This document shows positions 17,162 to 46,755 of a stretch of DNA of 64,000 bases, in pieces. The notes beneath the pieces are model-generated. The model searched no databases. It was not told the DNA's origin and was given only the letters and a program-made list of their open reading frames with translations. Location of the stretch: contig JBBTYQ010000003.1 of the NCBI GenBank assembly GCA_038078555.1, positions 397-64,396 of the forward strand, read 5' to 3'. The DNA comes from Patescibacteria group bacterium (GTDB lineage: Bacteria > Patescibacteriota > Minisyncoccia > UBA6257 > UBA9933). The stretch's first letter is position 1; each line of letters starts with the position of its first letter. The position numbers were made by a program, and so were the translations under genes.

Positions 17162-17283
17162 CCCAATCGCCTCCTTCTATATTTTTTAGTTATGTAAATT
17201 TTCTTCCCTTATGATAACATAATAAAATTAATATGTCAATAATACGATAACATACAAAAAGTTTTTAAAGTTTAGCTATCACT

Positions 17284-17399
17284 GGCGCTCCCGCAAGGAA
17301 TCGAATCCGTCAGTAGGCGGAGTGAGCCTATCAACTGCTTAAAAAATTTTATCCGCCCACTGGCGGACCGGCTGGCGGATTTGCCATTAAGCTATGGGC
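17284..17399 (-). pseudogene. Degenerate tRNA-Lys-derived unit with two GC-rich insertions (chimeric 3' end ...GCGGGAGCGCCA)
   Basis: The minus strand keeps the blocks CCCATAGCTTAATGGCAAAT, TTTTAAGCAGTTGAT and TTCGATTCCTTG, which are shared with the adjacent tRNA-Lys. The acceptor strands do not pair, and the anticodon and T stems are broken. Confidence 0.55.
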
Positions 17400-17421
17400 T
17401 ATGGGTTGAAAAGATTTACTG

Positions 17422-17492
17422 TGCCCCCACAAGGAATCGAACCTTGATCAGCTGCTTAAAAGGCAGCTGCTTTGCCACTAAGCTATGGGGGC
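17422..17492 (-). tRNA. tRNA-Lys(UUU)
   Basis: A 71-nt cloverleaf: GCCCCCA/TGGGGGC acceptor, anticodon arm GCTGC-CTTTTAA-GCAGC, T arm CAAGG-TTCGATT-CCTTG. No CCA is encoded. Confidence 0.92.
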
Positions 17493-17511
17493 ACAGTAAA
17501 TCTTTTCAGAT

Positions 17512-17769
17512 TTATTTATTTGTTAATTTTCTAATAAATTCTCTTCCTTTAAAACTCTTTAACTCTTTTTCCCTAATCATCGCTTCTTTTCTAGTATCAA
17601 AACTTTCTTTATAAATCAATCTCCAAAAACCACTATTCTTACTTGTAAACGATTTTGCTTTATTTTTCAATAATCCGTTGTGCCTTTTTAGTCTTTCTTC
17701 CAAATTTGATGTATGACCGATATAGATTTTATCTCTTTCCTTGTTGTAAATGGCATAAATAAAAAACAT
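17512..17769 (-). CDS. GIY-YIG nuclease family protein (small, URI-domain only)
   Basis: MFFIYAIYNKERDKIYIGHTSNLEERLKRHN... is a GIY-YIG core. The ORF track extends it to 17829, but that extension (MANPPAGGLLSR...) is a read-through of a tRNA fragment. Confidence 0.85.
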   Translation of the reverse strand: MFFIYAIYNKERDKIYIGHTSNLEERLKRHNGLLKNKAKSFTSKNSGFWRLIYKESFDTRKEAMIREKELKSFKGREFIRKLTNK

Positions 17770-17794
17770 TCTTTTAATTTCTTTTCTGCTTATT

Positions 17795-17843
17795 CTGCTT
17801 AAAAGTCCGCCGGCCGGCGGATTTGCCACTAAGCTATGGGGGC
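17795..17843 (-). pseudogene. 5' fragment of tRNA-Lys with a palindromic GC insertion
   Basis: The first 22 nt and the block CTTTTAAGCAG are identical to tRNA-Lys. The anticodon-stem 5' strand is replaced by the palindrome CCGCCGGCCGGCGG, and there is no 3' half. Confidence 0.7.
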
Positions 17844-17852
17844 AAATTAACT

Positions 17853-18101
17853 CTATGTGTTTTCTAATAATTTTTTAATTTTAACGCCTCCTTTCTGTTT
17901 TTTTAACCATCTTTCAAACTCTAATGCAAATTTTTTACTTTCAAACTCGCGCCAATATATTAATTTAAAAGGTCTTCTACTTTTCGTTGATTTACTCTTG
18001 CCTTCGTTATGCCATTTTAACCTTTTTTCGATATTATAAGTTGAGCCAATATAATTTTTATTATCTTTTTCGCTTTTTATAATATACACAAAATGCTTCA
18101 T
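17853..18101 (-). CDS. GIY-YIG nuclease family protein
   Basis: 82 aa with MKHFVYIIKSEKDNKNYIGSTYNIEKRLKWHN, a GIY-YIG core. Confidence 0.85.
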   Translation of the reverse strand: MKHFVYIIKSEKDNKNYIGSTYNIEKRLKWHNEGKSKSTKSRRPFKLIYWREFESKKFALEFERWLKKQKGGVKIKKLLENT

Positions 18102-18209
18102 TGACCAATCTTTTTTGTGAAATTAACACCGAAAAATAATGCGTTTATTTTTATAAAATATAAACCCCGCAAAGCGGGGCAACCTTTCAGCTAAATTTTT
18201 CAAAATAAT

Positions 18210-23756: not shown

Positions 23757-24010
23757 ACCCCGCCCTCTATGCATTAATTCTTTTTTTGAGCGCTCGCCAA
23801 GCGCTACCATAATATTTAAGTTTTTTCTCTCTGCTTCTCGCATCTTGTTCGTATAAATAAGCTTCATAATAAATATATTTATCTTCTGGGAAATTTAGTT
23901 TATGTTCTTTTATCCGCCTTTCTAAATCATTTGTATAGCCAATATATAATTCGTCATTCTTTCGATTTTTGATTACGTAAACAAAATACATAACGCTTAG
24001 AGGGCGGGGT
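23757..24010. repeat. 13-bp perfect inverted repeat bracketing the GIY-YIG ORF
   Basis: ACCCCGCCCTCTA at 23757-23769 overlaps the stop codon. Its reverse complement TAGAGGGCGGGGT is at 23998-24010, 6 nt upstream of the start codon. Confidence 0.85.
23767..23991 (-). CDS. GIY-YIG nuclease family protein
   Basis: 74 aa with MYFVYVIKNRKNDELYIGYTNDLERRIKEH. Confidence 0.85.
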   Translation of the reverse strand: MYFVYVIKNRKNDELYIGYTNDLERRIKEHKLNFPEDKYIYYEAYLYEQDARSREKKLKYYGSAWRALKKRINA

Positions 24011-42363: not shown

Positions 42364-42394
42364 TGGTGGCGTTCTGCCACTAAACTACTCTGGC
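42364..42394 (-). pseudogene. tRNA-Thr(GGU)-like 5' fragment ending in CCACCA
   Basis: GCCAGAGTAGTTTAGTGGCAGAACGCCACCA contains an acceptor 5' strand and a D arm that closely match tRNA-Thr(GGU). It then jumps directly to a CCA-like end. Confidence 0.55.
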
Positions 42395-42405
42395 ATCTAA
42401 CCGGG

Positions 42406-42586
42406 AGCCGGAGAGAGGAGTCGAACCTCCAACCGAAGTTTACCCCGTTAGATATGCCGATAAGCCGGCGGAGGGATTCGAACCCACGACCTACGGTTTA
42501 CAAAACCGTTGCTCTGCCCCTGAGCTACGCCGGCATATCTAACGGGGCTTCGCAAAAGCATTGCTCTACCATTGAGCTACCCCGGC
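42406..42586 (-). other. Interrupted tRNA-like gene (anticodon-loop UGC) whose halves flank tRNA-Thr(UGU)
   Basis: The 5' part (42586-42548) and the T arm plus acceptor 3' strand (42430-42406) have acceptor strands that pair 7/7. They are separated by 117 nt containing a 13-bp inverted repeat and a complete tRNA. Confidence 0.55.
42463..42534 (-). tRNA. tRNA-Thr(UGU)
   Basis: 72 nt with acceptor GCCGGCG/CGCCGGC and anticodon arm ACGGT-TTTGTAA-ACCGT. The T arm GTGGG-TTCGAAT-CCCTC has one U-U mismatch. Confidence 0.88.
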
Positions 42587-46624: not shown

Positions 46625-46755
46625 ACTAGCCTCCTTATTATATTTTCATGATCTTTATAAAATTTAATGCAATTTTTAAAAATTGTCAAATAAAAAATTC
46701 CCCCGCAAAGCGGGGGAATTTTTAAACTAACCAGCTAATTAGCTAACGAGCTAAA

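Follow-up and report, generated by a model that had tools for sequence, protein, structure and literature searches.

The 64,000-nucleotide stretch of a Patescibacteria group bacterium analyzed here (contig JBBTYQ010000003.1 of assembly GCA_038078555.1, hereafter the window) contains a tRNA-Lys locus in which two small GIY-YIG nuclease genes, one intact tRNA gene and two disrupted tRNA copies stand next to each other. We consider it probable, at roughly 0.6, that the locus is made of two stacked copies of a family of selfish elements that live in tRNA genes of Patescibacteria. Such an element would be a cassette with a nuclease gene that uses break-induced recombination to get into tRNA genes; one tRNA would remain functional, and other copies, disrupted by a palindrome, would be left behind. 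It would consist of an Slx1/UPF0213-type nuclease gene of about 85 aa and an intact tRNA (Lys, Asn or His), bracketed by partial tRNA copies. In these partial copies a clade-specific, GC-rich hairpin replaces nucleotides (nt) 24-31 of the tRNA or sits in the D-loop.

On the minus strand the locus is bounded by rplU (18521-18210) and by a conserved gene of 164 aa (17161-16667); the GC content of the window is 37.6%. Starting from rplU, the order is a hairpin designated P', the 82-aa nuclease gene g1 (17853-18101), a left pseudo-copy (psiL), the 85-aa nuclease gene g2 (17512-17769), the intact tRNA-Lys(UUU), a right pseudo-copy (psiR) and the 164-aa gene. An initial annotation of the sequence had named five elements here, two nuclease genes and three units derived from tRNA-Lys, and all five were confirmed with their coordinates by open reading frame (ORF) prediction, Pfam, Rfam, ARAGORN and alignment. 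Separated from the end of g1 by a 9-nt spacer, psiL begins with an exact copy of tRNA-Lys nt 1-22, that is, the acceptor 5' strand and the D arm (17822-17843, 22/22 identity). This 22-mer is found in the window only in psiL and in the intact tRNA-Lys, and chance alone would not be expected to repeat it exactly in 64 kb. Nucleotides 23/24-31 are replaced by the perfect 16-nt palindrome P (TCCGCCGGCCGGCGGA, 17806-17821), which has a 6-bp GC stem and a 4-nt loop (-10.8 kcal/mol for the hairpin). It is followed by CTTTTAAGCAG (17795-17805), an 11/11 copy of tRNA nt 32-42 covering the anticodon loop and the 3' strand of the anticodon stem, and there psiL ends. The initial description of this unit as a 5' fragment of tRNA-Lys interrupted by a palindrome is borne out by these matches.

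Alignment to the intact tRNA over its whole length shows that psiR (about 17283-17405) is a near full-length pseudo-tRNA-Lys. Its 5' end carries a duplicated CCCATAG, its T-run is expanded, and at nt 24-31 a partial P (17379-17368, TCCGCCAGCCGG) is joined to a full P (17367-17352, TCCGCCAGTGGGCGGA). A second insertion of 24 nt (AGGCTCAC+TCCGCCTACTGACGGA, 17329-17306) takes the place of the 5' strand of the T stem, and the 3' end, TTCGATTCCTTGCGGGAGC-G-CCA (...CGGGAGC-G-CCA), has an encoded CCA and is unlike that of the intact tRNA. The shared insertion site, the second insertion and the foreign ...GCGCCA end had all been pointed out for this third unit. The acceptor strands of psiR are GCTCCCG/CGGGAGC as compared with GCCCCCA/TGGGGGC in the intact tRNA-Lys; psiR therefore comes from another tRNA-Lys allele. 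CCGCC...GGCGG palindromes occur three times in the 64-kb window, and two of these are at the tRNA-Lys locus. Covariance-model scoring of the three units, which had been proposed as a check, gave a tRNA match only for 17422-17492 (RF00005, 75.4 bits; also found by ARAGORN), a tRNA-Lys(UUU) with no encoded CCA and the only functional-looking tRNA-Lys unit at the locus. Neither psiL nor psiR matched RF00005 even at E<=10. The three tandem Lys units initially described are all present; they are not equivalent, being an intact gene and a left and a right pseudo-copy that bracket g2 and the tRNA.

The same arrangement recurs in other genomes. A metagenome scan with an alignment of the g2 family gave 80 loci, of which 74 non-redundant ones were analyzed. 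A TCCGCC-N4-GGCGGA palindrome lies no more than 160 nt upstream of the ORF in 54 of the 74 loci, a tRNA gene on the same strand lies no more than 130 nt downstream in 53, and the two occur together in 45 of the 67 loci that have room on both sides. The initial annotation held that the fragments were not random decay, and it named a lack of association between the palindrome and GIY-YIG genes or tRNA fragments elsewhere as the result that would speak against it. In relatives the association holds, with a palindrome within 400 nt of the ORF in 68 of the 74 loci, and palindrome, nuclease gene and tRNA fragments are linked in other genomes as they are in the window. tRNA genes adjoin 63 of the 74 loci, and the isotypes are Lys (41), Asn (20) and His (2), with none other. 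The proposal that a GIY-YIG element repeatedly targeted tRNA-Lys is supported by this recurrence, as judged from sequence, and needs to be widened to tRNA-Asn and tRNA-His and to a second site in the D-loop. The Lys, Asn and His tRNAs are classic targets of anticodon nucleases; a link to these tRNA-targeting enzymes was considered, and no evidence for or against it was found. Beside a His-type GIY-YIG element, a tRNA cluster includes a tRNA with a CUA anticodon, called 'Pyl' by ARAGORN (L109, 1348-1421, and L110), which may be amber-suppressor-like.

The canonical layout of these loci is the one seen in the window. psiL, composed of tRNA nt 1-23, P and nt 32 to about 42, is followed by the ORF, the intact tRNA and psiR, which is composed of nt from about 4 to 23, P and nt 32-76. 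In 23 loci the stop codon of the ORF is the TAG of the tRNA's own U8-A9-G10. Variations on the layout are common. The tRNA precedes the ORF in six loci (L049, L061, L065, L068, L069 and L114), and the point at which psiL is truncated varies between nt ~39 and ~60. The second position of the palindrome, in the D-loop between TAGCTC(A) and GGTAGAGC, is the one used at every Asn locus and at part of the Lys loci. Pseudo-copies form tandem arrays in L068, L060, L086 and L069, the last with five copies, and palindromes are nested in palindromes in L087, L096, L109 and the psiR of the window. Some loci have extra T-arm insertions of ~22-25 nt, in either orientation, and the AGGCTCAC+TCCGCCTACTGACGGA insertion of psiR belongs to the same class.

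The pseudo-copies are derived locally. In its 5' part psiL has 90% identity to the neighboring tRNA, with a perfect match in 27 of 48 loci. The acceptor 7-mer of psiL is a perfect match to the local tRNA in 33 of the 48, whereas mean identity across loci is 53%. The segment after the palindrome likewise copies the local anticodon stem. In three loci (L061, L062 and L065) one pseudo-half agrees with the other, and both differ from the intact tRNA by compensatory changes in the acceptor or T stem. The sequences indicate that the pseudo-tRNA in these loci was once a functional gene that was split and functionally replaced. The initial annotation attributed the intact gene to a duplication that restored function; in these three loci, given the compensatory acceptor differences, it may instead be a replacement by an imported tRNA.

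The palindrome is conserved. The stem TCCGCC/GGCGGA is present in 82 of 102 palindrome instances, though the ORFs are only 50-70% identical, and the variants CCCGCC/GGCGGG, TCCGTC/GACGGA and TCCGTT/AACGGA are changed symmetrically. Free variation is seen at the four central bases, in many cases without symmetry. Among 23 distinct variants, four of the six stem pairs change on both sides and 98.6% of cells are paired; none of 500 shuffles reached the observed values. Such covariation argues that the palindrome is under selection. It is also specific to its clade. Homologues of g1 (L127-L134) have the same layout at tRNA-Lys(UUU), with the ORF between psiL, there bearing P', and the tRNA; their hairpin, CCCCGCTTTGCGGGG, differs from P and sits at the same tRNA position. 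The pseudo-copy content of L131 differs from that of L127, though the ORF proteins are identical. The g1 gene is a member of a sister clade that has a palindrome of its own.

Both nuclease genes encode little more than the catalytic domain. g1 and g2 match the Pfam GIY-YIG family (PF01541) above the gathering score, with E=5.6e-19 and 5.2e-18, respectively. They are only 40% identical to each other and are therefore not a recent tandem duplicate. Pfam, NCBIfam, PHROG and PADLOC revealed no DNA-binding or auxiliary domain in either protein, and the homing-endonuclease models of the last three match only the first ~40 residues, below their cut-offs. Across 42 homologues there is no variation at residues Y5, Y16, G18, R26, H30, E55 and R66/E67, among them the catalytic Tyr, Tyr, Arg, His and Glu. 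The AlphaFold2 model of g2 (predicted local distance difference test score 89; elements E-E-H-E-H-H) adopts the beta-beta-alpha-beta-alpha GIY-YIG fold. All Foldseek matches of the model are GIY-YIG domains, with 1zg2, 6sei and 7wme ranked above 1ln0 and 1yd6, and a sequence search of the PDB returned 1zg2 first (E=0.003) and then SLX1. Both searches put g2 closer to UPF0213 (BH0048) and to the nuclease domain of Slx1 than to I-TevI or UvrC, a placement that is tentative because the E-values are weak. A third minimal GIY-YIG gene, g3 (23991-23767, minus strand, 74 aa), is not beside a tRNA. It lies in a GC-rich inverted repeat, ACCCCGCCCTCTA ... TAGAGGGCGGGGT (23757-24010, minus strand), with its stop codon within the right arm, so that a palindrome located immediately before mraZ in effect has the ORF in its loop.

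The proximity of palindrome, ORF and tRNA also explains a recurrent annotation problem. The start codon of g2 is ATG 17769, not GTG 17829, since homologues begin with MF.., and the initial annotation correctly warned that naive gene calling would run the ORF through the tRNA fragment: the over-extended 105-aa ORF (MANPPAGGLLSR...) exists, and one public assembly annotates that form. Many homologues of g2 are annotated with a spurious N-terminal extension, for example MVDPPAGGLLS, which is translated GATCCGCCAGCTGGCGGACTTTTAAGC, and others have C-terminal tails such as SSVGRA, which is the tRNA D arm read as protein. An exhaustive search placed the breadth of the family at 170 clusters of 50% identity at E<=1e-10. 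Among all retrieved family proteins there are 84 over-long members of at least 97 aa; 26 of them contain palindrome-derived peptides, in all three frames (PPAGG, SASWR and RQLAE), and a further 25 contain tRNA-derived peptides (AQLVEH and GSSPG). The association therefore spans the wider family. In distant members (P0263, P0298, P0316, P0350, P0375, P0390 and others) the annotated N-terminal extension translates a whole tRNA (AQLVEH ... GSSPG), and a direct adjacency of tRNA and following ORF seems, from these translations, to hold well beyond the palindrome-bearing clade.

The pairing of a hairpin with each nuclease clade raises the possibility that what moves is the hairpin of 15-16 nt, as a 'nano-MITE' (from miniature inverted-repeat transposable element) comparable to the repetitive extragenic palindromes (REPs) and their associated tyrosine transposases (RAYTs). 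The cognate GIY-YIG enzyme would move or copy the hairpin into stem-loop DNA of tRNA genes, pseudo-tRNAs would be the only places where insertion is tolerated, and the nuclease gene would be the resident helper of the hairpin. We regard this as unlikely, and it overlaps with the favored explanation instead of excluding it. It would account for the fact that each GIY-YIG clade has its own hairpin, and for the range of positions at which hairpins occur: the D-loop, nt 24-31, the variable region, the T arm (there in either orientation) and the inside of other hairpins. The flanking of the nuclease gene by hairpins on both sides in 25 of the 74 loci, the location of g3 within a 13-nt GC-rich inverted repeat, and the relationship of the nuclease to Slx1, a cutter of branched DNA, point the same way. 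However, the hairpins are not dispersed, as 123 of the 137 palindrome hits in 180 kb of related loci are within 400 nt of the nuclease gene, and to our knowledge no GIY-YIG enzyme transposes DNA. The resemblance to REP/RAYT systems consists in a nuclease gene flanked by cognate short GC-rich palindromes and in a clade-specific pairing of protein and palindrome. RAYTs, in contrast, are HUH/Y1 transposases whose REPs are dispersed extragenically in hundreds of copies, whereas here the enzyme is a GIY-YIG nuclease and the palindromes are confined to nearby pseudo-tRNAs. With such an enzyme, and with three palindromes in 64 kb of which two are at this locus, we do not assign the locus to the REP/RAYT class.

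The close spacing of ORF and tRNA, on the other hand, suggests an arrangement at the RNA level. ORF and tRNA are 5-25 nt apart, often overlapping, and must therefore be co-transcribed. The GIY-YIG protein could have been domesticated to act on its tRNA or another RNA, with the hairpins serving as terminators, stabilizers or processing signals and the pseudo-tRNAs being duplication leftovers recruited as leader or trailer. We think this improbable, although several features suit it. P' together with TTTATATTTT, a T-run (hairpin 18165-18179, minus strand, between the rplU stop and g1; pattern match 18180-18164), and the psiR hairpin with its T-run (17368-17351) match the intrinsic-terminator pattern. 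The hairpin is at a fixed 12-30 nt before the start codon, and the asymmetric loops and symmetric stem changes are what an RNA hairpin would show. The intact tRNA-Lys of the window is enclosed in a perfect 23-nt inverted repeat with 100% complementary arms (left arm 17493-17508, pairing with the right arm at 17407-17421), which extends the acceptor stem by 16 bp into a predicted leader/trailer RNA stem of -58.7 kcal/mol (z=-9.1). Among prokaryotic Slx1-like proteins, one is a fusion with a tRNA Gm18 methyltransferase (PMC1564403).

Several other observations do not fit such a regulatory RNA. The psiL hairpin does not match the terminator pattern of a GC stem-loop and a T-run, and hairpins of the D-loop type at other loci precede GGTAGAGC and have no T-run after them. 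A strong terminator would defeat its own purpose 12-30 nt ahead of an ORF with an essential tRNA behind it. Truncation at varying points, arrays in tandem, nesting and the use of both orientations are what selfish DNA typically shows, and a tuned regulatory RNA typically does not; the arrangement is missing from related lineages (L015); and pseudo-copies that track the local tRNA sequence find no account in an RNA-level function. The long inverted repeat around the tRNA was rejected as a family trait, since only L123 (15 nt, of unrelated sequence, at the same place around the tRNA) and L060 (10 nt) have something similar; in the window it could be a processing stem or the trace of a tRNA insertion. 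P' is identical to the palindrome at nt 24-31 of the pseudo-tRNA-Lys upstream of g1 homologues elsewhere, and may be either a relic of the g1 pseudo-tRNA or, given that an identical hairpin also terminates groEL, simply the rplU terminator. The groEL terminator (46701-46715, minus strand) is CCCCGCTTTGCGGGG, and the 40 nt that precede it (tagctcgttagctaattagctggttag) are faintly like a tRNA D arm. It is a possibility that some terminators of the window are exapted relics of the element.

That the structure arises from chance resemblance or from collapsed or chimeric repeats in the assembly is very improbable. The repeats involved are short, and repeated sequence can lead metagenome assemblers to break contigs or join them wrongly. 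However, six contigs, drawn from separate assemblies that represent five or more samples, have the 1201-bp region at 100% identity, and a seventh has it at 99.7%. The contigs came from European Nucleotide Archive assemblies of Hainich groundwater and from Logan assemblies of other runs, produced by different pipelines. Repeats of 22 nt are far below the k-mer length of assemblers, and the same architecture is present in dozens of unrelated samples. The assembly artefact that the initial annotation had allowed for is thus set aside by these contigs.

Among the loci compared, the element is distributed sporadically. g2 has many close homologues in Patescibacteria, and the two closest (78% and 74% identity) are in unrelated gene neighborhoods, again at a tRNA-Lys with psiL, ORF, tRNA and psiR. 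The best match of the 164-aa protein, in comparison, is 66% identical; its relatives are in Paceibacteria, Harrisonbacteria and similar lineages. Orthologues of the 164-aa gene were compared at 35 loci, and just a single locus contains a GIY-YIG ORF, which is far from the gene. In the alignment of related genomes that had been suggested for finding empty sites, the 35 loci are not syntenic at this distance, and varied tRNAs precede the gene. What it did yield was the absence of GIY-YIG genes and a naive locus, L015, with a clean tRNA-Lys(UUU) of the same type and no element. Searches for proteins exactly matching g1, g2 and L21 brought up no other arrangement than this one, and hence no empty allele at strain level; for P0242, which is 99% identical to g1, there was no record. 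The 164-aa protein itself (relatives L008-L042) has no Pfam domain, has invariant W/C/Q/E residues, and in many Patescibacteria has tRNAs of varied isotype directly upstream.

Several known systems resemble parts of this arrangement. The GIY-YIG enzyme SegB of phages T4 and T6 cuts within tRNA genes, with which it is statistically associated across phages, and causes the tRNA region to be amplified segmentally, in tandem, by a process that depends on recombination (PMC2330249; PMC13096335). Its gene is embedded among tRNA genes, as are those of the g2 family, and by analogy SegB offers an experimentally supported precedent for nuclease-driven amplification of a tRNA region. SegB differs in being ~220 aa long with a DNA-binding domain, whereas g1 and g2 have 82-85 aa and only a catalytic domain of the Slx1/UPF0213 branch; they lack the combination of nuclease and DNA-binding domain that characterizes Seg-like homing endonucleases. 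SegB is borne by phages, while the g2 clade belongs to the chromosomes of Patescibacteria and did not turn up in IMG/VR, and SegB loci have neither a conserved palindrome nor palindrome-disrupted pseudo-tRNAs. A phage origin is not supported, as viral contigs gave only distant GIY-YIG relatives (<=46%, partial matches).

In the organelle gene atp6 of Allomyces, a mobile GIY-YIG endonuclease ORF is said to have arrived with a partial copy of the host gene, through which the function was reconstituted, the displaced part being left as an adjacent pseudogene fragment. There the target is protein-coding and its 3' part is duplicated, whereas in the window the target is a tRNA gene and hairpin-marked pseudo-copies are on both sides. 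Islands and prophages with a tyrosine integrase also insert in tRNA genes, restore the intact gene and leave a partial tRNA as a direct repeat. The element described here is only ~0.4-0.6 kb, duplicates the 5' portion of the tRNA or nearly all of it, and has a repeat in which a hairpin replaces nt 24-31. ORF and Pfam analyses found no integrase gene between rplU and the 164-aa gene, and with repeats that are 5' parts or whole pseudo-tRNAs instead of 3' att repeats, a tRNA-targeting integrative element was ruled out. Group I introns occur in tRNA genes of the same phylum, affect tRNA-Asn among others and are mis-annotated by standard tools. Those introns are self-splicing, interrupt the anticodon at position 35/36 and in some cases carry HNH endonucleases, and the paper describing them mentions no palindromes or GIY-YIG genes. 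A group I intron was ruled out here, since Rfam finds only tRNAs in the window, with nothing for the hairpin regions, and since what comes after the ORF is a complete tRNA and not a 3' exon. A 2006 phylogenomic survey of GIY-YIG proteins described prokaryotic Slx1-like proteins as minimal and stand-alone, the methyltransferase fusion mentioned above being among them (PMC1564403). GIY-YIG ORFs in non-intron insertions of rRNA genes of the Candidate Phyla Radiation, and GIY-YIG genes among the transferred genes of Patescibacteria from subsurface (groundwater) sites, have been published elsewhere. We did not find the arrangement described in the full-text-searchable literature, outside which most subscription journals fall, so that its absence there is no proof. 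Nuclease-driven invasion with partial duplication of the host gene is known in kind, and there is a real chance that the pairing of hairpin and nuclease is a new kind of element.

How might such a locus come about? We infer the cleavage, the mobility, the direction of transfer and the role of the palindrome as follows. The nuclease would make or provoke breaks in or beside the tRNA gene, and recombinational repair would then insert or duplicate the cassette. One working tRNA would always be kept, being an essential gene whose transcription passes through the nuclease gene, whereas redundant copies would end up with the palindrome, which destroys the tRNA structure and probably also the target or recognition context of the nuclease. 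Repeated rounds would give rise to tandem pseudo-copies, nested palindromes and stacked nuclease genes. Insertion in the tRNA transcription unit would place the nuclease gene between the promoter and an essential tRNA, and the gene would therefore be protected from deletion. For the window, g1 may have lain first, 9 nt upstream of the tRNA-Lys. The g2 unit would then have entered that tRNA at nt ~23/24, with psiL preserving the first 22 nt of the gene and psiR an older tRNA-Lys allele that had diverged. The overlapping layout of psiL and psiR is what single-crossover (Campbell-type) integration would be expected to produce if the unit carried a hairpin-bearing tRNA segment, and it could arise equally from unequal exchange after a break.

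A number of points weigh against this selfish-cassette explanation. The way in which an 85-aa catalytic domain finds its site without a DNA-binding domain is unexplained, and the intact tRNA, which still has the presumed target, must somehow escape cleavage or conversion. Overlapping, palindrome-bearing pseudo-copies on both sides do not follow from simple homing; extra steps are needed, be it Campbell-type integration, unequal exchange or gene conversion of the palindrome. Some palindromes with T-runs look like terminators and may act as such, and the hairpin of P' also terminates groEL. No same-species allele with an empty site was found, as all contigs with an identical L21 protein have the full structure, and mobility for this reason rests on comparisons with distant lineages. 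The g2 clade was not found on IMG/VR viral contigs, and no transfer vehicle is known.

A more specific form of the selfish element is possible, and we offer it tentatively. A minimal Slx1-like GIY-YIG nuclease and its cognate 15-16-nt hairpin could together plant the hairpin in the resident tRNA gene and thereby disable it, while the cassette supplies the sole working copy. The host could perhaps not lose the cassette, because the working tRNA would be transcribed through the nuclease gene, an 'addiction by tRNA replacement'. The hairpin might then be the recognition or cleavage structure, and the pair a speculative GIY-YIG counterpart of REP/RAYT systems specialized on tRNA genes.

Two further disrupted tRNA sequences were noted in the window. 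At 42404-42586 (minus strand) a tRNA-like gene is split in the anticodon arm into a 5' half (GCCGGGGTAGCTCAATGGTAGAGCAATGCTTTTGCGAA) and a 3' half (AAACTTCGGTTGGAGGTTCGACTCCTCTCTCCGGCTCC), whose acceptor strands pair. Its insert is a 14-nt inverted repeat (gccccgttagatat / atatctaacggggt) that encloses a complete tRNA-Thr(UGU), which again places an intact tRNA within a disrupted one, here without a nuclease gene or a TCCGCC palindrome. At 42369-42394 (minus strand), a 26-nt pseudo-copy of the 5' end of tRNA-Thr(GGU), GCCAGAGTAGTTTAGTGGCAGAACGC, precedes the intact gene for that tRNA by 10 nt and has no palindrome.

The analysis accounts for recurrent annotation errors in Patescibacteria, in which ORFs are run through pseudo-tRNAs (MxDPPAGGLLS..., SASWR, RQLAE) or into tRNA genes. 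If the proposed explanation is true, stand-alone GIY-YIG proteins of the Slx1/UPF0213 type, a large uncharacterized bacterial family, would gain a concrete biology and a testable substrate. A compact, clade-specific pair of nuclease and hairpin acting on a 70-nt target would also be attractive for studying the specificity of a nuclease that has only its catalytic domain. The proposed explanation would further mean that the smallest bacterial genomes have essential, single-copy tRNA genes open to invasion, duplication and replacement by way of a nuclease and not of an integrase.

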